DNA of 64,000 nucleotides, from the NCBI GenBank assembly GCA_963819655.1, contig CAWFXA010000003.1, forward strand, positions 288,001 through 352,000. The letters are read 5' to 3'. A program made the translations under genes and the position numbers. The notes beneath the pieces were generated by a model, which saw only the letters and a program-made list of their open reading frames with translations, did no database searches and was not told where the DNA came from. Shown in pieces: positions 18,373 through 60,461 of the stretch (positions are counted from its first letter, which is position 1; each line of letters begins with the position of its first letter). This stretch comes from an uncultured Chloroflexia bacterium (GTDB lineage Bacteria > Chloroflexota > Limnocylindria > Limnocylindrales > CSP1-4).

Positions 18373-19380
18373 TCAGCCCGGCGCCGGCCCGCTCGACTCG
18401 CGAACCTGCAGGTCGACCGGCAAGCGGATCGTCTCCGGGCCGATCCCCTCGCCATCGCCAGTTAGCTGGGCCACGGCGCGGCGTCCCATCTCGTCGGTGC
18501 GCTGCGCGATCGTCGTCAGCGGCGGATCGATGTAGGCGGCGACCGCCACGTCGTCGAACCCGACGACGCTGGCATCCGCCGGGACACGCCGGCCGCGGCG
18601 CCGGAGCGCACGCAGCGCGCCGATCGCCATGAGGTCGTTGTAGGCCACGATCGCCGTCGTCTCGGGCGCCCGGTCCAGCAGGTCGTACGCCGCCCGTTCG
18701 CCGCCCCCGACCAGGGCCTCGCCGACGGTCGTCGTCAGCGCGTCTGGCGGACAGCCCGCCGCGACCAGTGCTGCGCGCACCCCGGCCACACGTTCCGGCG
18801 CGTCGACGTTGCGCGGCGGTGGGAGGAGGTAGCCGAACCGGCGATGACCCAGCGCGAGCAGGTGTTCGGTGGCGACCCGGCCGCCCTGCTCGTTGTCCGA
18901 CATGATCGCCGGCAAGCCGACGTCGGGTGCCGCGGTATTGACGAGGACCACCGGGATCGGTGGCGACGACAGCCACTCCATATGGCGGACCCCGAGACTG
19001 CTGGCCGCGATGATCAGGCCGTCGACCCGCCGGTCCGCCAGCAGGTCGAGGTAGGACGCCTCGCGCTCCGGGTCGTCGGCCGCATTGCACAGCAGAACGG
19101 AGTAGCCGGACGCCTGGGCGGCGTCCTCGACCGACCGCACGAGCTGCGGGAAGTACGGGTTCTCGATGTCCGTGATGATCAAGCCGAGCGTCTGGGTCGA
19201 CCGCCGCTTCAGGGATCGGGCGACCTCGGACGGGCGGTAGTCGAGGGCGCGCGCGGCCTCGAGGACACGGGCCTTCGTCTCGGGCCGGGCGCGCCCGACG
19301 CCTGCCAGCACGCGGCTGACGGTCGCGGTCGACACGCCGGCCCGTGCCGCGACATCGGCGATCGTGGCCGTCATCGGCAT
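18373..19380 (-). CDS. LacI family transcriptional regulator (1)
   Basis: TIADVAARAGVSTATVSRVL HTH; VVGFDD, PPLTT. Confidence 0.95.
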   Translation of the reverse strand: MPMTATIADVAARAGVSTATVSRVLAGVGRARPETKARVLEAARALDYRPSEVARSLKRRSTQTLGLIITDIENPYFPQLVRSVEDAAQASGYSVLLCNAADDPEREASYLDLLADRRVDGLIIAASSLGVRHMEWLSSPPIPVVLVNTAAPDVGLPAIMSDNEQGGRVATEHLLALGHRRFGYLLPPPRNVDAPERVAGVRAALVAAGCPPDALTTTVGEALVGGGERAAYDLLDRAPETTAIVAYNDLMAIGALRALRRRGRRVPADASVVGFDDVAVAAYIDPPLTTIAQRTDEMGRRAVAQLTGDGEGIGPETIRLPVDLQVRESSGPAPG

Positions 19381-19429
19381 CGCCGCGGATGCGGCGGGAC
19401 AGCCGGCGCCGCCGTCAGCGGCCCCGGCC

Positions 19430-20326
19430 TCAGTGGCTTACCGTCGGTCCGGGCGCCGGCGGTGCCGACGCGGGCGGCCTGCGCTCGCTCTTCGCCAGCG
19501 CCTCGAGCTCGCGCGTCAGCTCGTGCAGCTCGTCACCACCGCCCATCTGGCTGTGCAGCTGATCGGCATCGACCTCGCCGCGACTGAACTGACCGCCGGT
19601 CCGGCCGCGCGACAGGATCGTGAACGTGTCGCCGATCGGCAGCGCGTGCGAGACGTTGTGGGTGATGAAGATGACCCCGAGGCCGCGGTTGCGGGCCGCG
19701 ACGATGTGGCGCAGCACGATCGCCGATTGCTTCACGCCGAGAGCCGACGTTGGCTCGTCGAGGATGAGCACGCGGGCCCCGAAGTACTCGGCTCGGGCGA
19801 TGGCAAGCGTCTGGCGTTCGCCGCCCGACAGCGTGCCAACGGCCTGGTCGGTGTCGCGCACGTCGATGCCGATGCGCTTCATCTCCTCCCGGGCGATCCC
19901 AGCCGCCTTGGGCAGATCGAACCGCTTGAACGGCCCGACACCGACCGTCGGCTCATTGCCGAGGAAGAAGTTGCGAGTGACGCTCATCAGGGGCATCACC
20001 GACAGGTCCTGGTAGACCGTGGCGATGCCCGCGTCGAGCGCGTCGCGCGGCGATCCGAACTCGACGGGCTGGCCATCAACGGCGAGCGTGCCCTTGTCCG
20101 GGCGGTACACGCCCGACAGTGTCTTGATCAGCGTCGACTTCCCGGCGCCGTTGTCGCCGAGCAGGCACGTGACCTGGCCGGCGCGGACCTCCAGGGACAC
20201 GCCTTCGATGGCAACGACCGCACCGAAGTATTTCGAGATGTCGCGCGCCTCGAGCAGTGGGGTCTGGTCCGCGGCGGCGGCCGGCGTCGCCTCCATGAGG
20301 GCGTCGGTCATGGGGGTCGGATCCAT
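19430..20326 (-). CDS. Sugar/inositol ABC transporter ATP-binding protein
   Basis: [27 protein letters not shown]. Confidence 0.95.
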
Positions 20327-20338
20327 GGGTCTGCCCTC

Positions 20339-21418
20339 CTACGTCAGTCCGGCGAACCGACGCCGGATCCAGTTGTTGAGGACGACGGCGACCAGCAGCA
20401 GCGTGCCGATCGCGATCTTGTACCAGTCGGCATTGATATCGGCGAAGACGATGCCCTGACGGGCCATCCCCAGCGCCAGCGCTCCGAGCGCGGTGCCGGC
20501 GACCGAGCCGTAGCCGCCGGTCAGCAGCGATCCGCCGATGACCGCGGTCGTGATCGCATCGAGCTCGATGCCGGTGCCACGCAGGATATCGGCCGAGTTG
20601 AACCGCACGCTCTGGATGGCCGCCAGGATCGAGGCCGACAAGGCCGTCATGGCGAACAGGGCGATCTTGACCCGCGCGACCGGCACGCCGAGGTTGCGCG
20701 CGGCACCGGCCGAGCCACCCACGCCCGCGATCCAGTTGCCAAAGCGAGTCCGGCCCAGCACGTAGCTGCCGACGACCGCGATGACGATCCAGATGAGGAT
20801 CGAGATCTGCAGGGTCCCGCTCTGATCCCCGAGCGAGATCGGCATGCTCCACCCGAAGAACTCCGCGAGCGGGTCGCCGGCGATCCGTGTCGGGTCGATC
20901 GGGATGTAGGTGATGTTCGTGACGGTCGACGTCAGCACCGATGACGCGCCGCGGATGATGAACAGCGTGGCCAGCGTGACGATGAACGACGGAAGTCCCG
21001 TCCGCACCACGATGAGGCCGTTGATGACCCCGAGGAACGTGGTCGCGATCATCGCCATGATGATCGACAGCCAGACCGGCAGACCCCAGATGGTGACGCC
21101 GATGCCGATGAGGATCCCGGCGAAGCCGACCATCGAGCCGATCGACAGGTCGAACTCACCGGCGATCATGAGCAGGGCCACCGCGGTGGCGACGATGCCG
21201 ACCTGGGCGGCGACATCGAGGTAGTTGAGCGTGCCCGGGATGCTCATGAAGGCGGTGTTCCCACGGGCCAACGAGATCGCCGCGAAGACGACCCACACGA
21301 ACACGACGATGATCAGGGCGCCCGCGGCCGGGCGCGCCAGGATGCGCTGGGTGAGGGAGAGGTTGCGGAGTCTGTCCGATCCCGGTGCTCGCGGGGGCGC
21401 GGTCGTCGTGCTCGCCAT
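20339..21418 (-). CDS. Sugar/inositol ABC transporter permease
   Basis: GEFDLSIG, GLPSFIVTL, TRFGNW, VIGGSLLTGGYGS. Confidence 0.95.
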   Translation of the reverse strand: MASTTTAPPRAPGSDRLRNLSLTQRILARPAAGALIIVVFVWVVFAAISLARGNTAFMSIPGTLNYLDVAAQVGIVATAVALLMIAGEFDLSIGSMVGFAGILIGIGVTIWGLPVWLSIIMAMIATTFLGVINGLIVVRTGLPSFIVTLATLFIIRGASSVLTSTVTNITYIPIDPTRIAGDPLAEFFGWSMPISLGDQSGTLQISILIWIVIAVVGSYVLGRTRFGNWIAGVGGSAGAARNLGVPVARVKIALFAMTALSASILAAIQSVRFNSADILRGTGIELDAITTAVIGGSLLTGGYGSVAGTALGALALGMARQGIVFADINADWYKIAIGTLLLVAVVLNNWIRRRFAGLT

Positions 21419-21437
21419 CGTTCCCTCCGAGGTGATC

Positions 21438-21466
21438 GGGAGGGACCGACCTGGCCGGTCCCTCCC
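21438..21466 (-). other. 11-bp stem hairpin between substrate-binding protein and permease genes (mRNA stabiliser/attenuator)
   Basis: GGGAGGGACCG-acctggc-CGGTCCCTCCC; no U-tract. Confidence 0.6.
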
Positions 21467-21499
21467 ATGCGCCGGTGACGCCGACGCGCGAGCGCTAGG

Positions 21500-22504
21500 T
21501 CAGCGGAGACCCTTGGCGGCGAGACCGATGACGGCCTCGGCGTCCGCCTGGGTCACGAACCCTGGGCCGGTCATGATCAAGCCCTGGCCGTTGCCGGTGG
21601 GCAGGTTCTTGGTCTCGGCGTAGTTCGTGAGGATGACGATCGGCAGGTAGCCCTGGAGGAACTGCTGCTGATCGATCGCGAAGTCCATCTTCCCGTCCTT
21701 GATCGCCGTCAGCACGTCGGCGCTGAGGTCGAAGGTCGCGAGATGGATGGTCTTGCCGGAGGCCGCCACGGCGTCGAGCGCCGGCTTGGCCACCGAGGGT
21801 CCGAGGGTCAGGATGCCGTCGATGGTCGCGTCGGCCGCGAGGGCCGCCTCGATCGCCGCCTGCATGCCGGCCGGGTCGGAGATGTTGCCGGTCAGGACCT
21901 CGCCCGTCTCGCTGTCCGTCAGGCCCTTGAAGAACCCGTTGCAGCGCAGAGTGAGAGCCTGGTTGCCCACTTCCTGGTTGAAGCAGACCGCGTTCTTGAC
22001 GCCGGCCTCCTTGAACCGTGCGCCGGCTCCGAGGCCCGCCTCATACTCGGTCTGACCGACATGGGCCAGGACACCCAGGTCCCGGAACACGTCAGAACCG
22101 GAGTTCATCGACACGACCGGGATGCCGGCGTCGACGGCCTTCTGGATCGCCGGCCCGAGCGCGTCGGGGTTCGGGATCGAGACGACCAGTCCGGTCGGCT
22201 TCTTGGCGATCGCGGCGTCGATGAGCGAGACCATGCCGGGCATGTCGCTCTCGGCGCTCGGGGCGTTGTAGGTCGCCGTGACGCCCATGTCGGCCGCGCC
22301 GGCCTTCACGCCGTTGCGGACCACGCCCCAGAAACCGTCCTGGGCCTGGCCGTGGGTGACGTACTCGATCTTGATGTCGGCGCGCTTGACGAGCGCGCCG
22401 TCGAGGGCTGCCGCGGCCGAGCCGGTCGGCGTGCCTGACGTACAGGCTCCCACGATCATTGCCGCGCCCGCGAGCGCGACGATCGTCTTGCTCCTCAGAT
22501 TCAT
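21500..22504 (-). CDS. Sugar/inositol ABC substrate-binding lipoprotein
   Basis: Lipobox IVGAC; [30 protein letters not shown]. Confidence 0.9.
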
Positions 22505-22668
22505 ACGGTTCGTTCTCCTCCGATGTGCCGCGGCGTCTGCCGCGGTCCCGATCTCAGCCGCCCGCAGGGCGGATCCGAGGGTTCGCTGCTGTCGGTTCGC
22601 GGCCAGCCTGGCCGCCATGGACACCTCCTTTCGTCCGGTCGTCCCGAGGGTCGGGTCCGATCCGGCCC

Positions 22669-23667
22669 TCAGCCGGGGATCTCCGCGAGCCGCACGGGTC
22701 GGTGTTCGTGGAGCGAGCGATCGGCCGCTTCGGCGATGCGGAGGGCCGCAAGGCCATCGGCGGCGGTGCATGGTGACGATGCATCGCCACGGGCGACCGC
22801 GACGAATGCCGCGAGTTCGGCAGCATAAGCCGACTCGAACCGTACGAGGAAGTCTTTCCACGCAGGCCCGGGTGGCGGGGGAACGCCGGGTTCGACGGAG
22901 CGCAGCGGGGTCTTCGGGCCGAGGCCCACCGCCACGCTGTCCTTCGAGCCGAAGACCTCGGCCCGGATGTCATAGCCCAGGGGGTCGTGCCGGGTGACGG
23001 TCATCGCGGTCAGCGGGCCGTCGATGAGACGGAGCGTCACGACGGCGGTGTCCACGTCCCCGTACTTCGCGAAGACCGGGAAGGCGCGCACGGCACCGTC
23101 GGCGTAGACCTCCTCGACCTCGCAGCCGGTCATCCAGCGCAGGACGTCGAAGTCGTGGATCGAGAAGTCGCGGAAGAGGCCGCCCGACTGCGCGATGTAC
23201 GCCTCGTGCGCCGGCTCCGGGTCGTGCCCGGCCAGACGCACCGCATAGAGCGTCCCGAGGTCGCCGCCGTGGACCAGCCGGTGGACCTCACGGTAGGCCG
23301 GGTCGAAGCGGCGCTGGAAGCCGAGCTGGAACGGGGCGCCTGACGCGTCGATGTCCGCGGCGAGCGCGATCGTCTCGTCGAGGTTCGCGGCGAGTGGCTT
23401 CTCACAGAACGTCGGGAGCCCCCGACCGATCGACGCCCGAATGAGCTCGGCGTGGGCGCCCGTGGCGGCTGCGATGACGATGGCGTCGGCGGCGTCCAGC
23501 GCCGCGTCCATCGAGGGGGCCACGCTGGCACCGACCGACGAGGCTACCTCGGCCGCACGATCCGCGTCGACGTCGCCGATCACGAGTGAATCGATGCCCT
23601 CCGTCGCGCTGAGGAGACGGGCATGGAGCTTGCCGATCCGGCCCGCCCCGAGCAGAGCGACCTTCAT
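22669..23667 (-). CDS. iolG: Inositol 2-dehydrogenase (Gfo/Idh/MocA)
   Basis: [48 protein letters not shown]. Confidence 0.85.
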
Positions 23668-24635
23668 GCCAGGGCTCCAGAAGGGCCGGCGCGGCCGTGC
23701 CGACGCAGCGTCGACCCGAGGACGCGCCGCCCGATCGCGGCGCTCTCCGACGGCGGGCCCCATGCGCTGTCCTGCTCGACCATCAGCCAGCCGGCGTAGT
23801 CGCGCTCGACCAGCGCCTCGATCACGCCGTCGAGATCGAGCATCCCGGCGCCGAGCTCCGTGAACAGCCGCTCGCGGACGGCGTGACCGAGCCCGTCGAG
23901 GGCACCCGATTGCAGCCCGGCGAGAACATCCGGGTCGACGTCCTTGAGATGGACGTGGGTGACGCGATCGGCCAGGTCGCGGATCGCCGCGACGGGGTCC
24001 CCGCCGCCGACGATGTGGTGCCCGACATCGAGGCAGATCCCGACACGGCTGGGGTCGGTGGAGGCCACGAGCCGGTCCACCTCCGCGGTCGTCTCGATGA
24101 ACGTCGCGCCATGCGGGTGGAAGGCGATCGGGCGTTCCGCGCGGTCCGCGATGTCGTGAAGGAGGTCGATCAGTGCGTCCCAGCCCGCATCGGTCAGCAC
24201 GGGTGTCCCTGGAGTCGTCGCGCGGCCCGCCAGTTCATCGCGACCCGGCGACCTGTGCAGCGCGACGCACAGGACCTCGCCGCCACCGTCGCGCAGCAGG
24301 CGGATCCGTTCGATCGCGACGTCGAGGGCTTCGGGTGTCGGTCCGTCCACGGTCGCAGGTAGCGGGACGTAGACCTCGGCAAGGCGCAGCTCGCGCCGGG
24401 CCAGCTCATCCCGCAGCTCGGCGCCCTCCGGGAACCCGTTGCCGAGCTGGGTACCCTCGTAGCCGGTCCGGGCGATCTCGTCGAGGACTGTCGCTGCGTC
24501 CAGGCCGGACGAGTCCGCGTGATCGGAGTTGATCCACAGCATCGGCACGGTGCCGATCGGGGATCGCGACAGTGCGTCGTCGGGGTGGCGGAGCGATGGC
24601 CGCACATCGTGACGAGCCGCTGTGACGGTGCTCAT
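23664..24635 (-). CDS. iolE: Myo-inosose-2 dehydratase-like TIM barrel (IolE/MocC), copy 1
   Basis: FHPHGATFIE, LDVGH, HVHLKD, LGAG, WLMVEQD; coupled to iolG. Confidence 0.8.
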   Translation of the reverse strand: MSTVTAARHDVRPSLRHPDDALSRSPIGTVPMLWINSDHADSSGLDAATVLDEIARTGYEGTQLGNGFPEGAELRDELARRELRLAEVYVPLPATVDGPTPEALDVAIERIRLLRDGGGEVLCVALHRSPGRDELAGRATTPGTPVLTDAGWDALIDLLHDIADRAERPIAFHPHGATFIETTAEVDRLVASTDPSRVGICLDVGHHIVGGGDPVAAIRDLADRVTHVHLKDVDPDVLAGLQSGALDGLGHAVRERLFTELGAGMLDLDGVIEALVERDYAGWLMVEQDSAWGPPSESAAIGRRVLGSTLRRHGRAGPSGALA

Positions 24636-24748
24636 CTGCGCCGACTCTCAGCCTCCCGAACGACCAGGGCGCGCGCAGTACGGGACGGGATTCGCGGGCA
24701 TGCGCGACGCGCGGACGACCCGGTCAACGCCCCTCCTTGCGCATTCCG

Positions 24749-24803
24749 CGTAATCGATTACCCTGAGTCGCGGACCGTATCGCACGGCACCATCGAGTGT
24801 CAA
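24749..24803. promoter_or_regulatory. LacI-type operator with divergent sigma70 promoters
   Basis: Perfect palindrome GTAATCGATTAC at 24750-24761. Minus strand TTGACA-18-TACGGT; plus strand TTGCGC-16-TACCCT. Confidence 0.7.
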
Positions 24804-24822
24804 TGCCGGATGTGGAGGATGG

Positions 24823-25956
24823 ATGGTGGGAGGGGCCACGGAGACGATGATCGGGGCCGCGCGGCTGCCGCTGGCCGACAGCCCGCTGGGCCGGACCGTG
24901 GCCACGACGTCGACCGACATCTGGAACGACTCGTGCGCGGTCGACGAGCTCGAGTACGCGATCTCGTTCGGTGCGGTCGGCGCGACCGCCAACCCGACCA
25001 TCGTCACCGACGTCTGGAAGGCCGACCCCGCTCACTGGCGCAACCGGGTGCGGAACCTCGCCGACGAGCGACCCGACGCGACCGAGATCGACCTCGCCTG
25101 GGCGATCGTCGAGGAGATGTCGCTCCGCGCCGCGCCGCTCCTGCTGCCGGCGTTCGAGGCATCCGGTGGCCGCCATGGCCGGCTGTCGATGCAGACCGAC
25201 CCGACGCTGTTCAGGTCCTTCGATCGCATGCTGGCCCAGGGCGAGCATTTCGCCTCGCTCGCCCCGAACATCGTGGTCAAGTTCCCGGCGACGTCGGTCG
25301 GCGTCCGGGTCATGGAAGAGGCGACCTACCGGGGCGTGAGCGTCAACGCGACCGTGTCGTTCAGCGTGCCCCAGGCCGTCGCGGCCGGCGAGGCCGTCGA
25401 GCGCGGGCTCCGACGGCGCGAAGCCGAGGGCTTGCCGGTCGATGACATGGGGCCGGTGATCACGGTCATGATGGGCCGCCTCGAGGACTGGCTGCGGGTC
25501 CAGACGGAGCGCGACGGGGTCGTCGCCGACCCCTCGACCCTGCCCTGGTCCGGCGTGGCGGTCTTCAAACGGACCGTCGCCGAGTTCCGGGATCGCGGCC
25601 TGCGCGCACGACCGCTCGGGGCGGCGATCCGCCACCACCTCCACTGGTCGGAGCTCATCGGCGGCGATGTGGTGATCACGATGCCGGCGACCTGGCAGCG
25701 TCGGTTCAACGCGTCGTCGGTCGAGGTCCGGCCGCGGATGGACGACCCGGTCGATCCGGCCATCGTGGATGAGCTGCAGCGGCACTTCCCGGATTTCGTC
25801 CGCGCCTACGAGCCCGACGGACTCGCGCCCGCGGAGTTCGACTCGTTCGGGCCGAGCGCGCGGACGCTCCGGGCATTCGTCGGGTCGTACCACGAGCTGC
25901 TCCATCAGGTCGGCGACGCGCTGGTCCCGAACCCGGACGTCAAGCCGCCCTCGTGA
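24823..25956 (+). CDS. Transaldolase-family protein (atypical active site)
   Basis: WNDS, GATANPT, VVKFP (Schiff-base Lys), NATVSFS, MGRLED; start 24823 or 24847. Confidence 0.85.
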   Translation: MVGGATETMIGAARLPLADSPLGRTVATTSTDIWNDSCAVDELEYAISFGAVGATANPTIVTDVWKADPAHWRNRVRNLADERPDATEIDLAWAIVEEMSLRAAPLLLPAFEASGGRHGRLSMQTDPTLFRSFDRMLAQGEHFASLAPNIVVKFPATSVGVRVMEEATYRGVSVNATVSFSVPQAVAAGEAVERGLRRREAEGLPVDDMGPVITVMMGRLEDWLRVQTERDGVVADPSTLPWSGVAVFKRTVAEFRDRGLRARPLGAAIRHHLHWSELIGGDVVITMPATWQRRFNASSVEVRPRMDDPVDPAIVDELQRHFPDFVRAYEPDGLAPAEFDSFGPSARTLRAFVGSYHELLHQVGDALVPNPDVKPPS

Positions 25957-35481: not shown

Positions 35482-35485
35482 GCCC

Positions 35486-46971: not shown

Positions 46972-46991
46972 CGCACGTTGTCGCGGGAGGG

Positions 46992-49640: not shown

Positions 49641-49648
49641 GGCCCGGG

Positions 49649-50434: not shown

Positions 50435-50439
50435 GGGTG

Positions 50440-52284: not shown

Positions 52285-53051
52285 GGCTTCCATCCTCGAA
52301 CGTTCGCAAGGTGCGCCTTCATCCCGTCCCGCAGGAACGGCTCCAGCGACGTCGTGAAATAGCGCGCCCCGCGGTCCAACCATTCGTGGGTCATGTCCGT
52401 CGTCGCCGCGTAGATCCCCAGGATCTTGTCCGATCCGACGACCGCCTCGGCGACGCGCTCGAGCGCGGCCAGGACGTCGGGATGGCGCAGGTCGCCCGGG
52501 TGACCGAGCGATTGCGACAGGTCGGTCGGTCCGAGGAACAGCACATCGATACCATCGATCGCCAGATAGTCGTCGATGGCGTCGACCGCGTCCTGCGTCT
52601 CGATCTGGATCACGACGAGTGTCTCGCGGTTCGCCCGCTCGACATACGCGCTGAGAGGCTCGCGCAGACCCCATTCGGACGCCCGGCTGCCGGCCAGCCC
52701 GCGGATGCCCCGCGGCGAGTACTTCACCGCCCGCACCGCCCGCTCCGCCTCGGCGGCGCTGTTCACCCACGGGATGTGCGCGCCGTGGGCGCCGGTATCG
52801 AGGTAGCGCAGGATCGTGGGCGGATCGTTCGTCGTCACCCGCACCATCGGTGTCACGCCGCGCGGCTCGATGGCTCGGCAGAGTTCCTCGACCTGGCCAG
52901 GCTGGAGCGTGCCGTGCTCGGCGTCGAAGACCAGGAAGTCCCAGCCGAGCAGCGCGACGTACTCGATGAGCGACGGCTCGGCCGTGCGGACGAAAGCCCC
53001 GAACGCCGGCTCCCCGGCGGCCAGCTTCGCCTTCGTCGCGTTCTGCAGCAT
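52281..53051 (-). CDS. HpcH/HpaI class II pyruvate aldolase
   Basis: FDAEHG, YSPRGIRG, QIET, FLGPTDLS; ATGA overlap with iolD. Confidence 0.9.
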   Translation of the reverse strand: MLQNATKAKLAAGEPAFGAFVRTAEPSLIEYVALLGWDFLVFDAEHGTLQPGQVEELCRAIEPRGVTPMVRVTTNDPPTILRYLDTGAHGAHIPWVNSAAEAERAVRAVKYSPRGIRGLAGSRASEWGLREPLSAYVERANRETLVVIQIETQDAVDAIDDYLAIDGIDVLFLGPTDLSQSLGHPGDLRHPDVLAALERVAEAVVGSDKILGIYAATTDMTHEWLDRGARYFTTSLEPFLRDGMKAHLANVRGWKP

Positions 53052-53063
53052 GACGGCCCTCGC

Positions 53064-54236
53064 TCAGTCGATCCGGAGGCTGACGACATCCTCCCACCGC
53101 TCGGATGACCACGAGCGGAACATCGCCGCGGCGACCGATGCGTTCGCCAGCGCGTCGGTGAAGCTCGGACTGTGGGGCCGCCCCGCGGCGACGGACTTCA
53201 GGAACGCCAGCGCTTCGATCAGCTTGAGATCCTCGAACCCGAGCGAGTTCCCGCCCCCGGGCACGATGTTCCCCTGGTTCGGGAAGGCGTCGCCCGCGAG
53301 GACGTCGATGAAGCCGTCGTTGGGCTGCTCTTCGGGAAGGTACAGGCGCAGCCGGTTGAGGCTCTCGTGATCCCACGACGCGGCCCCCTTCGAGCCGTTG
53401 AGTTCGAACGCCATCGAGCTCTGCGGCCCGACGATCGAGCGATCGGTCTCGAGCGTGCCGCGCGTGCCGTTCTCGAACTGGACGAGTGCCCCGACGTAAT
53501 CCTCGTTGGTCACCGCGCCCATGGGGTCGTCGGGCTTGCCGCGGTCGTAGTGCGTGCCGCTGCCCGGGACCGGCAGGGGCCGATGCTTGATGAAGGTCTC
53601 CTTGACGGCGACGACCCGGGTGATCGGTCCGCACATGAACTGGGCCATGTCGATGGCGTGGGACATCAGGTCGCTCAGGACGCCGAAGCCGGCCTCTTCC
53701 TGCAGGAAGCGCCAGGACAGCAGGCCGAGTCGGTCGCGCCCGTACATCGAGAAGAACCGACCACGGTAATGCGTCAGCTCGCCGAGACGTCCGTCCGCGA
53801 TGAGCTGGCGGGTGTACTGGACGAGCGGGGCCCAGCGGTAGTTGTAGCCACAGCCCGTGATCACGCCGGCGCGCCGACCAGCGAGCTCGATGGCCGCCGT
53901 CGCCTCCGGATCGATCCCGATGGGCTTCTCGCAGGAGATGTGCTTGCCGGCGGATGCCGCGGCCTCGGCGATCTGGCGATGGAGGGCGTTCGGTGCGGTG
54001 ATGTCCACGACATCGACGTCGTCGCGCGCGATGAGCTCGCGCCAGTCGAGCGTGCCGGTGGCGAACCCGAAGTTGTCGCGCGCGAGGTCGAGCCGCTCGG
54101 GGACGTTGTCCGCCACAGCGGCCAGGCGTGGCCGGATACCGGTCTCGGGGAAGTAGACCGGGATGTCGCGGTAGGCGCGCGAGTGCGCCTGACCCATCCA
54201 GCCGAAACCGACGACACCGATCCCGATCTCCGTCAC
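53064..54236 (-). CDS. Gfo/Idh/MocA oxidoreductase (cyclitol dehydrogenase-like)
   Basis: GFGWMGQAH, CEKP, GYNYR, SWRF, DLMSHAID, LGFEDLK. Confidence 0.9.
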   Translation of the reverse strand: MTEIGIGVVGFGWMGQAHSRAYRDIPVYFPETGIRPRLAAVADNVPERLDLARDNFGFATGTLDWRELIARDDVDVVDITAPNALHRQIAEAAASAGKHISCEKPIGIDPEATAAIELAGRRAGVITGCGYNYRWAPLVQYTRQLIADGRLGELTHYRGRFFSMYGRDRLGLLSWRFLQEEAGFGVLSDLMSHAIDMAQFMCGPITRVVAVKETFIKHRPLPVPGSGTHYDRGKPDDPMGAVTNEDYVGALVQFENGTRGTLETDRSIVGPQSSMAFELNGSKGAASWDHESLNRLRLYLPEEQPNDGFIDVLAGDAFPNQGNIVPGGGNSLGFEDLKLIEALAFLKSVAAGRPHSPSFTDALANASVAAAMFRSWSSERWEDVVSLRID

Positions 54237-55235
54237 TTGCCCACTCCTGCGTATGGCGCCGAGGCGGCGCGCCCCCAGACCTCCGGGTTGACGAGGTGTT
54301 CCGGTCGACGGCCCTCGGCGACATCGATCGCCTGCTGGAACGCAGCCCGGAAGATGCGCGCCTTGCCATCCGCCGTCGCCGACGCGACGTGTGGCGTGAC
54401 CACGACGTCGTCACGCCCGAGGAGCGGGTGCCCCACCGGCAAGGGCTCCGGCGACGTGACATCGAGTCCGGCTCCGAACAGGCGCCCGCTCTCGAGCGCG
54501 TCGAGCAGGGCGTCCTGGTCGACCAGTCCGCCCCGGGCCGTGTTGACGAAGACGGCCCCGGGCTTCATCGACCCGAACTCGCGGGCGCCGAACATGCCGA
54601 CCGAGGTCGCGCTCAACGGCACGTGGACCGACACGACGTCCGCACGCTCCAGGAGCTCCTCCAGCGTGTCCACGCGCTCCGTCCCAGCCGGGATCGCCGA
54701 CGCGTCGAGATACGGATCGAACACGGTCACCCGCATCCCGAGGCCGGCGGCGATCCGCGCCACGTGCCGGGCGATCCGGCCGAACCCGACGAGACCGAGC
54801 ACCTTGCCGTCGAGCTCGATCCCCTCGTGTCGGCTGTAGTAGCCCCTGGACAGGCCGGTCTCGTAGCGCCGACTCGGCGCGCCGGACGTTCTTGGCGACG
54901 CTCAGCATCAGCGTCACCGCGTGTTCAGCGGTCGAGACCGTGGGTCCGTCAGGGGCATTGCAGACCGCGATCCCGCGGCTGGTCGCTGCCTCGACATCGA
55001 TGGCGTCGACGCCGATCCCGGTCCTCGAGATGACCCTCAGGTTCGGTGCCCGATCCATGAACGCGGCGCCGTACTGCGCCGCCCCGACCACCGCGGCGAC
55101 AGCGGTGTCGACGCCAGCGTGCGGATCGTCCTCGGTCGCCGGGCCCAGGAGCGTGCAGGCGGCCGCGACCGCGGCGGCGAGCTCGGGGAGCACCGGTCGC
55201 TCGAACCAGATCGGCGGCAGCTCGGAGGGTGTCAC
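54233..55235 (-). CDS. SerA-like D-2-hydroxyacid dehydrogenase, +1 frameshift near 54860
   Basis: RTGIGVD and STAEH in one frame; ELDGKVLGLVGFGRIA, NTARG, GLDV, TPHVAS in the next. Confidence 0.85.
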
Positions 55236-56171
55236 GCCGGTCTCGTCGCCGGGCTGCCCGCGAACCGCGGCTCCGGCAGCCCGCTGACGCCGGCGTCGAT
55301 GGCGAAGAGCCCGCCGGCTTCCGGCTGCGCCGGGTCGATCAGCGTGGGACCCACCCCCGCCGATCGAGGTGATGAACAGCGTCGACAGGTCGGGGCCGCC
55401 GAAAGCCGGCATCGTCGGCTTCTCGACGGGGACGGCGATGCGCCGATCGATGACGCCCCCGGGCGTGACCCGGAGGACCGCCCAGCCGTACACACACGCG
55501 ATCCAATAGCAGCCACCCTCGTCGACGCACGCGCCGTCGGGCCTGCCCGGGAGGGACGCGAAGTCGAGGTAGACCCGCTCTCTGGTGGCATCGCCGGTCG
55601 AGACGTCGTAGTCGTACGCCCAGACGGTGTCGCGATGGGTATCCGCGAAGTACATCGTCCGCCCGTCCGGTGCGAAGGCCAGACCGTTCGTCACGCCGAT
55701 GCCGCTCCTGACCGTGACCGCCGTGCCGTCCGCCTCGACCCGGTGGAGCAGGCCGGTCGCCGGCCGGGTGCCGTCGCCAGAGGCGACGGCGGGGTCCGCC
55801 ATCGACCCGACCCAGAACCGCCCGGCCGGGTCGCAGCGCCCGTCGTTGAGGCGATTCCGCAGATCCACGGCTTCGAGGACCACCCACTCGGACCAGGCGC
55901 CGGACGACCAGTCGAGGAATGCCAGGCGGCCCTCGATGGCCACGAGCAGGCGTTCCGGCGTGTCCGTGAGGGCCAGCGACGCGGGCCGACCCGGTGCCGA
56001 TCGCTGCTCATCCAGGCCGGTCGCTGGGTCGAAGCGATGGACCGCTCGCCCATCGATATCCACCCAGTAGAGACGGGCCTCGGCCGGACTCCACGTCGGG
56101 CATTCGCCCAGCTGGGCACGGGCGGGCAGAACGCATGTCGCCGTTCGGTCATCCACGCGGGGATGGCTCAC
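55232..56171 (-). CDS. SMP-30/gluconolactonase family sugar lactonase, +1 frameshift near 55343
   Basis: LGECPTW, RLNDGRCD, NGLAF, PDGACVD, FGGPDL; tail QPEAGGLF...GLPE in the shifted frame. Confidence 0.85.
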
Positions 56172-57061
56172 GCGCCACGGCCGGTCAGGCCGCGCAGGAA
56201 CGCGACGCTCTCGACGGCGTCCGCCTTCGGCCCACTGCCTTCGGCCGGCTCTTCACGAAGGGAGACGTCCTGCTCGAGCACGTACCAGCCGCGGTAACCG
56301 TCGTCCTCGAGGAACTCGATCACGCCGGCGATGTCGACGCCGCCTTGGCCCAGCGGGACGAACAACCCATCGATGACCGACTGGCGGAAAGGGATTTCGC
56401 CCGACCGGACCCGCTCGGCGCCCGCCGCGTCGACGTCCTTGAGGTGGACGTGGAGGACGCGCCCGCGAGCGGCGCGCACGACATCGACCGGGTCCGCGCC
56501 GCCGAGGTAGACGTGGCCGGTGTCGACGCACAGCCCGACGTCGGACGACCCGAGCAATCGGTCGATATCCGGCCCGGTCGCGATGGCCAGGCCCCAATGG
56601 GGATGCAGCGCGGTCTTCAAGCCGGCATCGGTGACGAGCGAGTCGAGGCGCTGGAGATTGGCCAGGAACGTCGTCCACTCGTCGTCGCTCATGTCCACCG
56701 GTGTGTCGTAGCCGGGGTGCTGCGACGAGGGGCCAAGAACGAGCACCTCTGAACCAGTCGAGGCCAACTGCCGAGCCGCACGCGTCACGTACTCGAGCTC
56801 CGCCTCGATCCGGTCCGGGCGGTAGAGGAGCGCCGGCACGAACCCGCCGACGATGCTCATGTCGAACCGGGAGAGGTACTCCCGAAGCTCGGCCGGATCG
56901 GTCGGCAGGTAGCCATCGGGCCCCAGCTCCGTCGCCGACAGGCCGGACTCGACCATCTCCCGCATGACCCGGTCGCGGTCCATCAGGTAGCCCCAGCCCG
57001 GGGAGCCGTCGACGCCCCATGTGATCGGTGCGCCCGCCACTCGTTCGAGGAGATCGCTCAC
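56168..57061 (-). CDS. iolE: Myo-inosose-2 dehydratase-like TIM barrel (IolE/MocC), copy 2
   Basis: AGAPITWGV, TELGPDG, LHPHWG, VDTGH, HVHLKD, PLGQG, WYVLEQD. Confidence 0.8.
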   Translation of the reverse strand: MSDLLERVAGAPITWGVDGSPGWGYLMDRDRVMREMVESGLSATELGPDGYLPTDPAELREYLSRFDMSIVGGFVPALLYRPDRIEAELEYVTRAARQLASTGSEVLVLGPSSQHPGYDTPVDMSDDEWTTFLANLQRLDSLVTDAGLKTALHPHWGLAIATGPDIDRLLGSSDVGLCVDTGHVYLGGADPVDVVRAARGRVLHVHLKDVDAAGAERVRSGEIPFRQSVIDGLFVPLGQGGVDIAGVIEFLEDDGYRGWYVLEQDVSLREEPAEGSGPKADAVESVAFLRGLTGRGA

Positions 57062-57098: not shown

Positions 57099-57146
57099 TT
57101 GACGGTCAGATTATCGTGCTGGTAGGGTGCTGTGCAATCGGTTGCA
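57099..57146 (+). promoter_or_regulatory. Sigma70 promoter plus LacI-type operator
   Basis: TTGACG-18-(TGn)TAGGGT, then TGCAATCGGTTGCA at 57133-57146. Confidence 0.75.
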
Positions 57147-57166
57147 TTGACGAAGGGAGAGCCGGC

Positions 57167-58408
57167 ATGCCCGGACCCGGCATCGAGCTGATCGGCGAAG
57201 AAGAGATCGCCGAGGTCATGCAGGTCCTCACCAGCCGTGCACTCAGCCGCTACGGCAACGCCGACGATCCGACATTCGGGGCGAAGGTCCGCAACGTCGA
57301 GAAGGAGATCGCCGCACTCGCCGGCGTCCGCTTCGCGCTGGGCCTCCACGGCGGTGGCTCGAGCGGGCTGTGGCTGTCGCTGATGGGCCTGGGCATCGGG
57401 CCGGGTGACGAAGTCATCGTGCCCGGCTTCACCTACGTCGCCTCGATCTCGGCGATCGTCTACGCTCGAGCGCTCCCGGTCCTCGCCGAGGTCGACGACT
57501 CGTTCAACCTCGACCCGGCCGACGTCGAGGCGCGGATCACCCCGCGCACCCGGGCGATCATCGTGGTCCACATGCTCGGCGCGCCGGCCAGGCTCGACGA
57601 GCTCAAGGACATCGCCGACCGCCACGGCATCGCGCTCATCGAGGACTGCGCCCAGGCGTTCGGGGCGAGCTATCAGGGCCAGGGCGTCGGCGGGATCGGC
57701 TTGGCCGGGGTGTACAGCTTCAACGAGTACAAGACGATCACCTGCGGCGATGGCGGGATGATCGTCACCGACGACGAGGACCTTTACAACCGGCTCTTCG
57801 CGATCCACGACCAGGGACATGCGCCGAACCGCCTCAGCTCGAAGTACGCGGAGCGCCCGTTCCTCGGCATGAACTTCCGGATGACCGAGCTGTCCGGCGC
57901 CGTTCTGCTCGCCCAGGTCAGGAAGCTCGACATGATCCGGTCGCATCTGCGGGAGAACAAGAAGATCGTGAAGGCGGCCATCGAGGACCTGCCCGGGCTC
58001 GGCTTCCGCGCGATCGTCGACCCGGAAGGCGATCTGGCGACGCATCTCGTCGTCACGTTCCCATCTGCGGAGGTTGCGAAAGCCGTGACGGCGGAGCTCG
58101 GTTCGATCCCGCTCGCCGCGTCCGGTTGGCACGTCTACTCGAACATGGAGCACCTCCTCGAGAAACGGACCGTCAGCGGGAAGGGCTGCCCGTTCGACTG
58201 CTCGTGCTTCGGCCACGGGAAGGCCGACTACCGGGCCGGCATGCTGCCGCAGACCGACGCGCTGCTCGCTCGCTCGATGAGCATCGGCATCGGCGTCTCC
58301 GACGCCAACCTGGCGCCGTTCGGCCTGCGGATGCGTGACGACGAGGCCGCCGCACGCAGCGTCGCGGCCCGCTTCCGCGAAGCGGCCGGCAAGCACCTGG
58401 CCGGCTGA
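57167..58408 (+). CDS. DegT/DnrJ/EryC1/StrS PLP aminotransferase (B2), close paralog of 34249..35481
   Basis: MPGPG start, IEDCAQAFGA, SFNEYKTITCGDGG, NFRMTEL, GCPFDCSC. Confidence 0.9.
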   Translation: MPGPGIELIGEEEIAEVMQVLTSRALSRYGNADDPTFGAKVRNVEKEIAALAGVRFALGLHGGGSSGLWLSLMGLGIGPGDEVIVPGFTYVASISAIVYARALPVLAEVDDSFNLDPADVEARITPRTRAIIVVHMLGAPARLDELKDIADRHGIALIEDCAQAFGASYQGQGVGGIGLAGVYSFNEYKTITCGDGGMIVTDDEDLYNRLFAIHDQGHAPNRLSSKYAERPFLGMNFRMTELSGAVLLAQVRKLDMIRSHLRENKKIVKAAIEDLPGLGFRAIVDPEGDLATHLVVTFPSAEVAKAVTAELGSIPLAASGWHVYSNMEHLLEKRTVSGKGCPFDCSCFGHGKADYRAGMLPQTDALLARSMSIGIGVSDANLAPFGLRMRDDEAAARSVAARFREAAGKHLAG

Positions 58409-58416
58409 GTCAGGCC

Positions 58417-59475
58417 GTGGCGCCGCCGTCCGACATCGGCATCGGCATGGTCGGGTACGGACTGGCCGGACGACTGTTCCATGCGCCCTACATCGACGCC
58501 GTGGACGGGCTGCGCATCCGGGCGGTCGCGACCTCGAACCCGGATCGCCGTGCACAGGCGCTGACCGATCGCCCTGATGCCGACGTGGTCGACTCGGTCG
58601 ACGCACTCCTGGCGCACCCCGACGTCGAGGTCGTCGTCGTCGTGACGCCCAACCGGTCACACGCCCCGATCGGCGAGCAGGCGCTCGCCGCGGGTCACCA
58701 CGTCGTCGTCGACAAGCCGATCGCGATGAGCGTCCCGGAGGCGGAGGCACTGATCGAAGCCGGCGAGCGCGCGGGACGGATCCTGTCGGTCTACCAGAAC
58801 CGGCGTTGGGACGGCGATCTCCAGACCGTCAGGCCCCTGATCGAGAGTGGCGTCCTCGGCCCGATCGATAGCCTCGAGGCGCGTTTCGAGCGCTGGGCGG
58901 CGGTCGGCCCCGAATGGCGCGAGACGGCCGAGGAAGCGGGCGGCCCGCACCGCGACCTTGGCGCCCACCTCGTCGACCAGAGCCTGCTGCTGTTCGGGGA
59001 CGTGACCCGCGTCTTCGCCCAGATGGACAGCCGTCGTCCGCGGAGTCGGGTCGAGGATTCGGTGTTCATGGCGATGGACCACGCCAACGGCGTCCGGTCG
59101 CGTCTGTGGACCTCGCTGATAGCCGTCCGGCTCGGTCCACGGCTTCGGGTCCGAGGCCTGGCTGGCGAGTACATCAAGGAGGACCTCGACCCGCAGGAGC
59201 GCCAGCTCCTCGACGGGATGCGGCCCCTGGACCCGGGCTTCGGCGAGGAACCCGCGGAGCGGTGGGGGAGCGTCCTGGCCAGCGACGGTTCCCGGACGGT
59301 CATCCCCACGATGCGCGGGGATTACCGGGGCTACTACGAGGCGCTCCGCGACGCGGTCCGGGGAGTAGGGGCAGTGCCGGTCGATCCGGCCAATTCGGTC
59401 CGCGGCTTGCGCGTGCTCGAGGCCGCCGAGCGCTCCGCGCGGAGCGGCGCGGTCGAAGCGGTCTCGAACGGCTAG
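58417..59475 (+). CDS. Gfo/Idh/MocA oxidoreductase (IolW/YdgJ-like)
   Basis: GYGLAGRLFHAP, VVDKP, YQNRRWDGD, DLGAHLVDQ, DPQE. Confidence 0.85.
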   Translation: MAPPSDIGIGMVGYGLAGRLFHAPYIDAVDGLRIRAVATSNPDRRAQALTDRPDADVVDSVDALLAHPDVEVVVVVTPNRSHAPIGEQALAAGHHVVVDKPIAMSVPEAEALIEAGERAGRILSVYQNRRWDGDLQTVRPLIESGVLGPIDSLEARFERWAAVGPEWRETAEEAGGPHRDLGAHLVDQSLLLFGDVTRVFAQMDSRRPRSRVEDSVFMAMDHANGVRSRLWTSLIAVRLGPRLRVRGLAGEYIKEDLDPQERQLLDGMRPLDPGFGEEPAERWGSVLASDGSRTVIPTMRGDYRGYYEALRDAVRGVGAVPVDPANSVRGLRVLEAAERSARSGAVEAVSNG

Positions 59476-59477
59476 CC

Positions 59478-60461
59478 ATGCCGACGCAGCGGCTCCGCCT
59501 CGGACTCCAGGTCTGGAGCCAATACGTGACCTGGCACGAGCTGATGGCGATCGGCCGGGAGATCGACGAGCTCGGCTTCGACGAGCTGTGGAGCAACGAT
59601 CACCTGCTGCCTCAGGCCGCCGGCGGCGTCGGGGCGCTGGGCGAGCTCGACGGTCCCGTGTTCGAGGGCTGGTCGATCCTGTTCGGCTGGGCCGGGATCA
59701 CGAGTCGAGCGCGGATGGGCTGCCTCGTATCCGGAGCGGGCTACCGGAACCCGGGCGTGCTGGTCAAGATGGCCACGGCCCTTGATCACGCGACCGACGG
59801 CCGTGCCGTGCTCGGGCTGGGGGCCGGCTGGTTCGAGCGCGAGCACCGTGCATTCGGGTTCGAGTTTCCGGCCGTGGGCCGGCGCCTCGATCGATTGGGT
59901 GACGCCGCCGCCATCTCGCGCGGGCTGCTTGACGGATCCACCGTCACCCACGACGGCGAGTGGTTCTCGGCTGTTGACGCGCGCAACGATCCGCCGCCCG
60001 TCCAGTCGCGCCTCCCCCTGGCGATCGGCGGCAGCGGCGAGAAGCGGACGCTGCGCATCGTCGCGCAGTACGCCGACATCTGGAACGCGGACCAGGACGA
60101 TCCCGAGTCGTTCCGGCGGCGGAACGGCATCCTCGACGAGCATTGCCGCGCCGTCGGGCGCGACCCTGCGTCGATCGAGCGGACCGCCGGGCTGGCTGCG
60201 CCGTGTATCCGGTCGACGCGCGGCGAAGCGGTCGATGCGCTGACCGCCATCCTCGAGCAGCAGGCGATGCCCCGCGCGGACGCACGGCGGATGGCCGAGG
60301 CGTCGCCGTTCGCGGGACCGGTGCCCGCGGTCGTGGCCGAGCTGCGCCGCTATCGGGACGCGGGTCTGAGCGCGGCGATGTTCGACTGGCCCGCACCGTT
60401 CGATCGACCCACGCTCGAGGCCCTCGCAGGCCCCGTCCGAGCCGCGCTCGACGAGGCCTGA
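59478..60461 (+). CDS. Luciferase-like (LLM) oxidoreductase, probably F420-dependent
   Basis: WSNDH, FEGW, YRNPGVLVKM, GLGAGWFE, IGGSGEKRTL...ADIWN. Confidence 0.85.
   Translation: MPTQRLRLGLQVWSQYVTWHELMAIGREIDELGFDELWSNDHLLPQAAGGVGALGELDGPVFEGWSILFGWAGITSRARMGCLVSGAGYRNPGVLVKMATALDHATDGRAVLGLGAGWFEREHRAFGFEFPAVGRRLDRLGDAAAISRGLLDGSTVTHDGEWFSAVDARNDPPPVQSRLPLAIGGSGEKRTLRIVAQYADIWNADQDDPESFRRRNGILDEHCRAVGRDPASIERTAGLAAPCIRSTRGEAVDALTAILEQQAMPRADARRMAEASPFAGPVPAVVAELRRYRDAGLSAAMFDWPAPFDRPTLEALAGPVRAALDEA

Follow-up and report, generated by a model that had tools for sequence, protein, structure and literature searches.

What would a soil bacterium do with genes for opening the inositol ring that stand interleaved with four aminotransferases and an amine-type importer? 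The question is raised by a 64,000-nucleotide stretch of DNA, here called the window, from an uncultured Chloroflexia bacterium of the Limnocylindria (contig CAWFXA010000003.1, positions 288,001–352,000), the genome of which comprises 3.49 Mb in three contigs with approximately 70% G+C; names such as "Candidatus Limnocylindrales bacterium" and "Chloroflexi bacterium" are attached to the closest homologs of its proteins. Positions 18373–60461 of the window, which we refer to as the island, are coding throughout, with about 40 genes in five divergent promoter units. An earlier note on this DNA had taken the region to be a catabolic gene cluster for aminocyclitols or aminoglycosides. We lean towards reading it as an accessory, LacI-controlled island of soil Limnocylindria-like Chloroflexota that would encode a catabolic route from imported amine-bearing cyclitols into the ring-cleaving enzyme IolD. 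Inositol breakdown itself is a textbook pathway. In open-access papers and preprints we came upon no description of amino-cyclitols entering it catabolically through aminotransferases, and the accessible text of a 2026 review of cyclitols and aminocyclitols describes no such entry (PMC12904256).

An inositol module with an amine extension

Genes were called by third-position G+C, after which the open reading frames (ORFs) of the window were scanned with Pfam and NCBIfam; for IolG, IolE and IolM, "-like" denotes a family member that scores under its curated, equivalog-level NCBIfam cut-off. All gene classes listed in the earlier note were recovered where it had placed them, and the island holds others besides: the E1alpha, E1beta and E2 genes, a TAL/FSA-like gene of the transaldolase family, an HpcH aldolase, an SMP-30 lactonase, a 2-hydroxyacid dehydrogenase, an SDR, an F420-type LLM oxidoreductase and a third AP_endonuc_2 gene. 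Coordinates are collected in Table 1.

The island consists of two parts, an ordinary inositol module (18373–26843) and an "amine" extension (26954–60461). The ring-opening inositol genes reported previously stand in the case of IolD and IolB, which both exceed their cut-offs, whereas IolG and the two IolE proteins fall under theirs and can be called "-like" only. The closest solved relative of SBP1, the binding protein of the module's CUT2 importer, is 4ru1 (170 bits), which we take to be an inositol-bound CUT2 protein. As for the steps after ring opening, the best match to the IolC kinase (TIGR04382) in the whole genome lies outside the island and reaches 186 bits against a cut-off of 300; the PfkB gene at 17354–18322 was considered for this role and rejected, as it has no IolC match and also stands at sites that are empty of the island. 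The malonate-semialdehyde dehydrogenase IolA (TIGR01722, 722 bits against 448.5) is likewise encoded elsewhere (C1:241931-243361). The TAL/FSA-like protein reaches at most 86 bits with transaldolase models, and its gene adjoins that of IolB in the plain iol clusters of four relatives (G111, G090, G005, G026). That no IolC passes its cut-off, that an IolA is present in the genome and that the TAL/FSA-like gene travels with IolB in plain clusters together suggest that 2-deoxy-5-keto-gluconate may be split without a kinase, into dihydroxyacetone and malonate semialdehyde.

The extension has an importer of its own, of the polyamine (Pot) type. Its PotD-like binding protein, the most substrate-specific part of the island, carries a twin-arginine/lipoprotein leader and is remote from characterised proteins, scoring 58.5 bits with the PotD/PotF model (cut-off 582) and 57–58 bits with solved PotD. 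Its homologs are few (734 at E ≤0.001), and none of the best 120 is less than 60% identical to it. Because both transporters of the island are binding-protein-dependent importers, the regulators are LacI repressors and the shared operators are conserved in relatives, the proposal of the earlier note that the set runs catabolically is supported, as is its working as a unit.

Operators and regulators

A predicted operator, a 14-bp pseudo-palindrome with the core AATCGNTT, occurs in each of the five promoter gaps. The core has eight matches in the window against 1.74 expected, a number reached in none of 100 shuffles, and five of the six places at which it matches lie in promoter gaps (24752, 34221, 40505, 46929, 57136); the plus strand of the whole 3.49-Mb genome holds only 30 such cores. 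With up to three mismatches allowed, the full palindrome is found five times against 1.27 expected, a number likewise reached in none of 100 shuffles; one of these five, at 23901 inside the IolE1 gene, is probably due to chance. Equivalent operators stand at the same promoters in six relatives (G030, G024, G021, G006, G023, G106).

The earlier note had seen one operator motif throughout. It does recur at all five gaps, but as a family of three related variants. The first, GTAATCGATTAC, occupies the TAL/IolE1 gap, where it is shared by G030, G024, G006 and G026, and forms akin to it (GTAATCGATT-) are seen in sequence retrieved from around plain iol clusters. The second, TGCAA(T/C)CG(G/A)TTGCA, is found in the DegT3/IolE2 and CehA/LacI3 gaps; O4 is kept at the latter in all six relatives named above, and O5 is kept at the IolE2-like/DegT3 gap in relatives. 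The third, of the form GAAATCG(A/T)TTGC, belongs to the LacI2 and DegT2/Zn-ADH1 gaps. In G024 and G023 the DegT2/Zn-ADH1 gap likewise contains an equivalent of O2, and the O3 variant is confined to relatives that carry LacI2, which are the same two. Among the relatives compared, each variant is present only alongside its LacI paralog: G021 and G023 lack both LacI1 and the GTAATCGATTAC site, and LacI2 together with the third variant is found only in G024, G023 and this window. Since variants and paralogs co-vary in this way, we infer that each operator variant would pair with one LacI paralog.

An accessory island at a fixed chromosomal site

The island stands between the same flanking genes in four relatives (G030, G024, G021, G006) as it does here: it is bordered by a zincin, a 2-hydroxyacid dehydrogenase, YchF and PfkB at one end and by a DEAD helicase at the other end. 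G024 carries the full set. The middle genes (GFO_a and GFO_b of the Gfo/Idh/MocA family, the class III aminotransferase, AP_endonuc_2, Zn-ADH1, DegT2, E1/E2, the PF04199 hydrolase and LacI2) are all missing from G030, while G021 still has GFO_a and AP_endonuc_2, and G006 has retained GFO_a together with the class III aminotransferase. Two more genomes (G023, G106) have rearranged or divergent versions with the importer, Zn-ADH2, LacI3, CehA-like, DegT2, IolD, IolB, GFO and LLM genes.

Five genomes without DegT1 were inspected. In four (G031, G010, G033, G016) the site is empty, with PfkB followed directly by the helicase, and in the fifth (G026) it holds the inositol module only. The gap between PfkB and the DEAD helicase (borders 17354–18373 and 60461–61838) is thus a gene-gain hotspot that may be empty, inositol-only, or filled by a full or partial amine island, and these states support an accessory island with a fixed position in the chromosome. 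DegT1 orthologs were found in six of 36 other genomes of the genus that were searched and in none of 24 genomes of a small-genome sister family. Among 120 other members of the genus, about 28 genomes carry an IolD of the island type (at least 83% identity), 21 of them at full length and seven in pieces. Five of the six DegT1-positive genomes hold it; the sixth, G036, which is 71% complete, is not in the list of IolD matches. The plain iol clusters of G111, G090, G143, G067 and G005 contain no amine genes (DegT, Pot, CehA).

Conservation around the PotD-like gene

The earlier note called for a check of conserved co-occurrence with iol genes in other genomes, and would have taken its loss as a refutation. 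A scan with one genome per species turned up 186 proteins related to the PotD-like one; 80 of their loci were retained and compared with 43 proteins of the window; counts refer to the 56 loci of at least 16 kb. A DegT gene is present in 40 of these, a class III aminotransferase in 16 and either of them in 47, while IolD is found in 36, IolB in 35 and one or the other in 43. Zn-dependent dehydrogenases of the Zn-ADH1 or Zn-ADH2 type are present in 45 loci, CehA-like proteins in 40 and LacI regulators in 51. An aminotransferase occurs together with IolD or IolB in 37 of the 56. With one IolD per 3.49 Mb, we estimate the chance that a 20-kb neighbourhood holds this gene at well under 1%.

The linkage extends to distant versions. 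Of the 11 loci in which the PotD-like protein is less than 50% identical, with titles that include Actinomycetota, Gaiellaceae, Acidobacteriaceae and Alphaproteobacteria, seven have DegT, nine have IolD or IolB and one has CehA. A Gaiellaceae metagenome-assembled genome (MAG; locus L114) shows how compact the arrangement can be: by Pfam, its genes run IolE-like, aldo-keto reductase, IolG-like, LacI, PotA, PotD-like, PotB and PotC, followed by two unknowns, GFO, DegT, IolB, another unknown and IolD. A second locus (L118) resembles it but has an IclR regulator, and the DegT proteins of both match DegT2/DegT3 of the island before the three other DegT genes of the source genome. Linkage of the amine-type importer, aminotransferases and IolD/IolB is therefore supported as conserved across many species, some Actinomycetota MAGs included, so that the proposal of the earlier note is not refuted by a loss of the association with iol genes elsewhere. 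Two loci titled Patescibacteria group and Verrucomicrobiia (L059, L074) carry importer, LacI3 and CehA genes 43–77% identical to the Limnocylindria versions (PotD-like 59–67%); they are probably mis-binned Limnocylindria contigs, and MAG titles can mislead.

Relatives of the aminotransferases and dehydrogenases

The lysine that binds pyridoxal phosphate (PLP) and the conserved aspartate are intact in all three DegT proteins. DegT2 and DegT3 are close paralogs, to both of which DegT1 is 31–34% identical. Kinship was judged by bit scores to solved structures, in place of a reference tree. By this measure DegT1 is closest to Fic25 (8gyh, 270 bits), and DegT2 and DegT3 are closest to KdnA, the 8-amino-3,8-dideoxy-manno-octulosonate transaminase (5k8b, 256 and 264 bits). 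The 2-deoxy-scyllo-inosose aminotransferases score 136–162 bits with the three proteins (BtrR 2c7t 136–148, 5w70 147–162), 7b0d, an entry named glutamine--scyllo-inositol transaminase, 146–188, and NtdA 90–112. Their closest characterised relatives are hence KdnA and Fic25 (256–270 bits) instead of inosose aminotransferases, and the DegT proteins appear to group neither with nucleoside diphosphate (NDP) sugar enzymes in particular nor with the known inosose aminotransferases.

KdnA and Fic25 (8gyh-8gyj) act on substrates that are not nucleotide sugars. Although they are the nearest solved relatives of the island DegTs, they are biosynthetic enzymes of unrelated pathways and say nothing about cyclitols; the available part of one paper places 8GYJ as Fic25 in the ficellomycin pathway (PMC11726168). 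MosB and the BtrR/BtrS-type inosose aminotransferases (2c7t, 5w70) have in common with the island proteins the Pfam family PF01041 with its PLP lysine and a reversible type of reaction, and differ in being mid-range relatives at best (136–162 against 256–270 bits) and in that the island setting is catabolic. For MosB, a member of the homologous family, transamination of an inosose has been shown, with scyllo-inosose as the compound aminated, according to the accessible portion of PMC6668481. The class III aminotransferase is found in only some relatives. In a plasmid collection, 505 records match DegT1, all at less than 60% identity, and the best of them (41%, an unannotated Streptomyces plasmid) has no cluster genes around it.

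Cyclitol-type relatives occur among the other proteins. Structural matches of GFO_a include 4h3v, the levoglucosan dehydrogenase LgdA (6a3f) and a scyllo-inositol dehydrogenase (5ya8), and GFO_a, GFO_b and GFO_c resemble 3-dehydrogenases of the levoglucosan dehydrogenase type (207–297 bits). GFO_d scores 203 bits with Bacillus subtilis YvaA (3gdo), presumably the scyllo-inositol dehydrogenase IolU. We count GFO_a (5ya8, LgdA), GFO_d (YvaA) and SBP1 (4ru1) in favour of a cyclitol route. The solved relatives of the two Zn-ADHs are generic only.

A proposed route into IolD

Gene content, regulation and conservation are the observed part of what follows, and the chemistry is our deduction. The PotD-like system would import one or more amine-bearing cyclitols, free or conjugated, with the CehA-like hydrolase releasing the cyclitol from any conjugate. 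The DegT and class III enzymes would pass the amino groups to a 2-oxoacid, yielding inososes, and the Gfo/Idh/MocA and Zn-ADH enzymes would set the oxidation state. The 1,2-diketone might be formed by the IolE-like enzymes or by a dehydrogenase, whereupon IolD would open the ring, IolB would isomerise the product, and the TAL/FSA-like or HpcH aldolases could cleave what IolB yields. The simplest substrate would be an inosamine of the scyllo-inosamine type. Judging from their gene content, the compact clusters with one DegT in other phyla seem to fit a mono-amino cyclitol better than aminoglycoside cores, and the extra aminotransferases of this island suggest several related substrates, or di-amino ones.

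Two known systems bear on this scheme. The core of the island belongs to the kind of the canonical iol pathway, with IolC and IolJ missing. It shares with that pathway IolD and IolB above their cut-offs, IolG-like and IolE-like proteins, an inositol-type CUT2 importer and a repressor, and presumably opens the ring via the same diketone. It differs in that no IolC exceeds its cut-off in the genome, in that the TAL/FSA-like and HpcH proteins take the place of an IolJ-type aldolase, of which the island has none, and in that four aminotransferases, an amine-type importer and a PHP-type hydrolase have been added under related operators. The Thermotoga-type IolM/IolN/IolO route was also considered and set aside, as its cut-offs are missed (187 and 196 bits against 450 for IolM, at most 23 bits for IolO).

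The other is the rhizopine (scyllo-inosamine, 3-O-methyl-scyllo-inosamine) system mocRABCDEF of Sinorhizobium/Rhizobium, the only one for aminocyclitol catabolism that we found in open-access papers and preprints. Going by the title of Bahar et al. 1998, mocDEF reportedly form an oxygenase complex. In the accessible parts of two papers, moc is said to use a binding-protein importer, MocA (of the Gfo/Idh/MocA family) and the IolE-like MocC, and rhizopine catabolism is said to depend on inositol catabolism (PMC10107442, PMC6668481); MocC is still termed a protein of unknown function in the first of them (PMC10107442). The island, too, has a binding-protein importer, a Gfo/Idh/MocA dehydrogenase and an IolE-like protein. 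However, moc is under MocR and includes mocDEF, whereas the island is under LacI, and neither a MocR-type regulator nor the MocDEF oxygenase families are found by Pfam among the island ORFs. The portions of those papers that we could consult name no aminotransferase among the moc catabolic genes, whereas deamination in the island would fall to the DegT and class III enzymes. Finally, SBP1 stays under the cut-off of the rhizopine binding-protein model NF052284 (295 against 420 bits).

Weighing the alternatives

Several observations weigh against the route that we prefer. The IolG-like protein, both IolE-like and both IolM-like proteins lie under their curated cut-offs. The DegT proteins are nearest to Fic25 and KdnA and only mid-range to the 2-deoxy-scyllo-inosose aminotransferases and 7b0d. 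The PotD-like protein has no characterised close relative, so that an amine ligand is suggested by its family alone. Nine of the 56 loci have no aminotransferase within 10 kb, although in two of the nine (L041, L053) the available stretch stops at the IolE2-like gene, where DegT3 would come next, and close kinship among many of the 56 loci makes the counts overstate the independent support. The simple scheme leaves roles unexplained for the CehA-like, E1/E2, PF04199, LLM, lactonase, 2-hydroxyacid dehydrogenase and HpcH proteins; the set of lactonase, SDR or GFO_c, 2-hydroxyacid dehydrogenase and HpcH, that of E1/E2 with PF04199, and the LLM protein have no place in it. Lastly, the genes for PotC and the 2-hydroxyacid dehydrogenase, intact in G024, are frameshifted in the assembly (at 42023 and about 54859). 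At neither place is the extra base present in short-read contigs from public soil and rhizosphere runs: one from run X5 has one base fewer exactly at 42023, with five other differences in 725 bases, and one from run X1 has one base fewer at 54859. Both frameshifts are therefore probably assembly errors and not gene decay. DegT copies on C2 are other split genes of the source genome.

A bolder possibility is that the compound consumed is an aminoglycoside or the core of one (2-deoxystreptamine, streptamine or neamine-type), which would be taken up by the Pot system and stripped of its amines by the four aminotransferases, with pairs of Gfo/Idh/MocA and TIM-barrel enzymes cutting the glycosidic bonds via 3-keto intermediates and 2-deoxy-scyllo-inosose giving the IolD substrate directly on oxidation. 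Such a substrate would suit the four aminotransferases, which belong to two classes, as well as the two Zn-ADHs, five Gfo/Idh/MocA enzymes, the polyamine-type importer and the likeness of GFO_a, GFO_b and GFO_c to 3-dehydrogenases, and established chemistry suggests that oxidation of 2-deoxy-scyllo-inosose beside its carbonyl would give trihydroxycyclohexane-1,2-dione, which IolD could cleave without IolE. Nevertheless, the 2-deoxy-scyllo-inosose aminotransferases are not the nearest relatives of the DegTs, the Zn-ADH relatives are generic, Pfam finds no glycoside hydrolase or aminoglycoside-modifying family in the island, and nothing beyond the Gfo/Idh/MocA and TIM-barrel pairs was identified there for cleaving glycosidic bonds. 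Versions in other phyla make do with a single DegT and without CehA, soil contains little of such compounds, and our literature searches brought up no pathway of this kind. We regard this substrate as rather unlikely, and the aminoglycoside cores put forward in the earlier note are not supported, given that the DegTs are nearest to Fic25 and KdnA. Its full form, in which soil Chloroflexota would eat aminoglycoside-type antibiotics or their cores by means of a polycation importer, four aminotransferases, oxidative 3-keto cleavage and passage of the deoxy-inosose into IolD without IolE, seems unlikely; if true, it would be a complete route made of reversed biosynthetic enzyme families, in abundant uncultured soil Chloroflexota. 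We are equally doubtful of an inositol conjugate with the amine on its sugar, for example the glucosaminyl-inositol of mycothiol, of GPI anchors or of plant sphingolipid head groups, from which the CehA-like protein would take off an acyl or phosphate group, GFO and TIM-barrel enzymes would free the inositol oxidatively, and the DegTs would deaminate keto-amino sugars. In its favour, a full inositol route stands together with amine handling in the island, and the CehA-like protein is a PHP-type metallohydrolase with a predicted phosphoesterase as its sole reliable fold relative; the solved structure closest to DegT2 and DegT3 is KdnA, whose substrate is a free sugar acid, and the 3-dehydrogenase-like GFOs stand with three AP_endonuc_2 proteins. 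But the proposal is purely inferential, as none of the island's families has known activity on conjugates of this kind, compact versions elsewhere keep the importer, DegT, IolD and IolB without CehA and the extra TIM barrels, and three or four aminotransferases exceed what one amine needs.

That several unrelated sugar, polyol and amine pathways have merely gathered at the hotspot, the aminotransferase products never reaching IolD, strikes us as quite improbable. The variable content of the site, the three operator variants with three regulators, the unexplained E1/E2 module and a lactonase, HpcH aldolase, 2-hydroxyacid dehydrogenase and SDR that look like a sugar-acid route are all consistent with it, yet the IolD operon faces DegT3 across a shared operator, 37 of the 56 loci combine the importer with an aminotransferase and IolD or IolB, in varied gene orders and in other phyla too, and the plain iol clusters of the genus have an IolD of their own. 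That the cluster makes an aminocyclitol product is very improbable indeed. DegT, Zn-ADH, Gfo/Idh/MocA and class III families are all employed in aminocyclitol biosynthesis, MosB (above) being a demonstrated case. However, the called ORFs of 18373–60461 include no sugar-phosphate cyclase, inositol-phosphate synthase, glycosyltransferase, exporter or self-resistance gene by Pfam, which agrees with the earlier remark that a glycosyltransferase, a 2-deoxy-scyllo-inosose synthase and an exporter are absent; moreover, both transporters are importers, the ring-cleaving IolD and IolB lie under the same operators, and the regulators are LacI-type repressors.

Other genes of the extension and neighbouring features

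The minus-strand genes of 49649–57019 form one operon, with the IolE2-like gene first, followed by those for the lactonase, 2-hydroxyacid dehydrogenase, GFO_c, HpcH aldolase, IolD and SDR, an order that is kept in G030, G024, G021, G006 and G023. The E1/E2 set represents a 2-oxoacid dehydrogenase of the acetoin or pyruvate type, for which no E3 gene is found in the island, and is co-transcribed with the PF04199 hydrolase and LacI2. Among relatives, the E1/E2 genes are variable and occur only in G024, L067 and L070; the PF04199 hydrolase and LacI2 occur additionally in G023, L048, L050 and L051. The sole family match of the PF04199 protein is arylformamidase, at 41 bits.

The CehA-like protein matches no Pfam family. 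An AlphaFold2 model from an 18-row alignment (predicted local distance difference test score 65.7) suggests, with low confidence, beta-sandwich domains, with a beta-rich N-terminal half, around a PHP-like barrel. Foldseek returned one reliable match, the PHP-like predicted phosphoesterase 3e38, and matches to GH2 glycosidases were discarded (TM score about 0.1), while a protein atlas returned only unnamed or CehA/McbA-named clusters. Of the two amide/carbamate hydrolases claimed earlier, a metallohydrolase above the NF038032 cut-off and the PF04199 protein are indeed present; the designation as a metallohydrolase appears safe for the former, but "carbamate hydrolase" does not.

In a rhizosphere metatranscriptome (run X20), contigs of 92–97% likeness lie on LacI3, CehA-like, SDR, IolD, HpcH and GFO_c (46507–54412). 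At most this hints weakly at transcription of island relatives in situ, as DNA carry-over or relatives may account for these contigs. DNA runs labelled soil or rhizosphere hold 0.23–0.40 of the sampled words.

Beyond the island, a 318-aa ORF at 60958–61914 on the minus strand has no family match and no tblastn match at the loci of relatives, and is probably not a gene, though third-position G+C hints at some coding in this gap. About 7 kb upstream of the island, at 8220–11400, an M20 peptidase, an arginase-family enzyme and a methyltransferase stand in a row, next to housekeeping genes (MgsA, UvrD-type helicase-nuclease).

Table 1. Genes and predicted operators of the island, in window coordinates.
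Feature	Position	Strand	Basis and remarks
LacI1	18373-19380	-	Pfam LacI and Peripla_BP; putative repressor of inositol module
CUT2 importer ATPase	19430-20326	-	Pfam
CUT2 importer permease	20339-21418	-	Pfam
SBP1, CUT2 binding protein	21500-22540	-	Pfam
IolG-like inositol 2-dehydrogenase	22669-23670	-	TIGR04380 305 bits, under cut-off 355
IolE1, IolE-like TIM-barrel	23664-24635	-	TIGR04379 170 bits, under cut-off 290
Operator O1 CGTAATCGATTACC	24749-24762		TAL/IolE1 gap; inositol-type variant
TAL/FSA-like, divergent transaldolase-family protein	24823-25956	+	PF00923; candidate aldolase in place of IolJ
IolB, 5-deoxy-glucuronate isomerase	25953-26843	+	TIGR04378 274 bits, above cut-off 205
DegT1	26954-28267	+	PF01041 280 bits
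GFO_a, Gfo/Idh/MocA	28284-29396	+	Pfam, NCBIfam
GFO_b, Gfo/Idh/MocA	~29414-30619	+	Pfam, NCBIfam
Class III aminotransferase, glutamate-1-semialdehyde (GSA) aminomutase-like	~30676-31989	+	PF00202; PRK00062 395 bits, cut-off 398
AP_endonuc_2 TIM-barrel enzyme (third such gene)	32013-32957	-	Pfam
Zn-ADH1	33105-34088	-	best family IolM 187 bits, cut-off 450
Operator O2 TGAAATCGTTTGCA	34218-34231		DegT2/Zn-ADH1 gap
DegT2	34270-35481	+	PF01041 277 bits
E2	35486-36679	-	Pfam, NCBIfam
E1beta	36676-37692	-	Pfam, NCBIfam
E1alpha	37679-38644	-	Pfam, NCBIfam
PF04199 "cyclase" hydrolase	38645-39370	-	Pfam
LacI2	39444-40460	-	Pfam, NCBIfam
Operator O3 CGCAATCGATTTCC	40502-40515		upstream of LacI2
Zn-ADH2, last gene of importer operon	40646-41668	-	IolM-like 196 bits, cut-off 450
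PotC	41692-42532	-	frameshift at 42023
PotB	42525-43442	-	Pfam, NCBIfam
PotD-like lipoprotein binding protein	43452-44567	-	Pfam, NCBIfam
PotA	44560-45717	-	above subfamily cut-off, 356.7 against 355.6
LacI3, first gene of importer operon	45714-46799	-	Pfam, NCBIfam
Operator O4 TGCAATCGGTTGCG	46926-46939		between LacI3 and CehA-like gene
CehA/McbA-family (PHP-like) metallohydrolase, 866 aa	47040-49640	+	NF038032 147 bits, above cut-off 80, residues 500-820
SDR	49649-50434	-	Pfam, NCBIfam
IolD, thiamine-diphosphate-dependent ring-cleaving hydrolase	50440-52272	-	TIGR04377 845 bits, above cut-off 715
HpcH aldolase	52281-53051	-	Pfam, NCBIfam
GFO_c, Gfo/Idh/MocA	53064-54236	-	Pfam, NCBIfam
2-hydroxyacid dehydrogenase	54233-~55250	-	frameshift at ~54859
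SMP-30 lactonase	55332-56171	-	Pfam, NCBIfam
IolE2-like	56168-57019	-	TIGR04379 158-163 bits, under cut-off 290
Operator O5 TGCAATCGGTTGCA	57133-57146		IolE2-like/DegT3 gap; one mismatch to palindrome
DegT3	57164-58408	+	DegT family (Pfam, NCBIfam)
GFO_d, Gfo/Idh/MocA	58417-59475	+	Pfam, NCBIfam
F420-type LLM oxidoreductase	~59500-60461	+	TIGR03560 218 bits, cut-off 231

Implications

If the island does lead from amine-bearing cyclitols into IolD, it would constitute a second, aminotransferase-based entry into the inositol pathway, beside the rhizobial moc genes, and one that would be widespread in Limnocylindria and present in some Actinomycetota. The accessible text of one study puts Limnocylindria at up to 9–30% of the community at peaks in soil samples (PMC13212565). 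The island would then provide candidate enzymes, binding proteins and repressor-operator pairs for inosamine signals of the rhizopine type, and the fate of aminocyclitols in soil, natural aminoglycoside cores included, would be open to direct testing.

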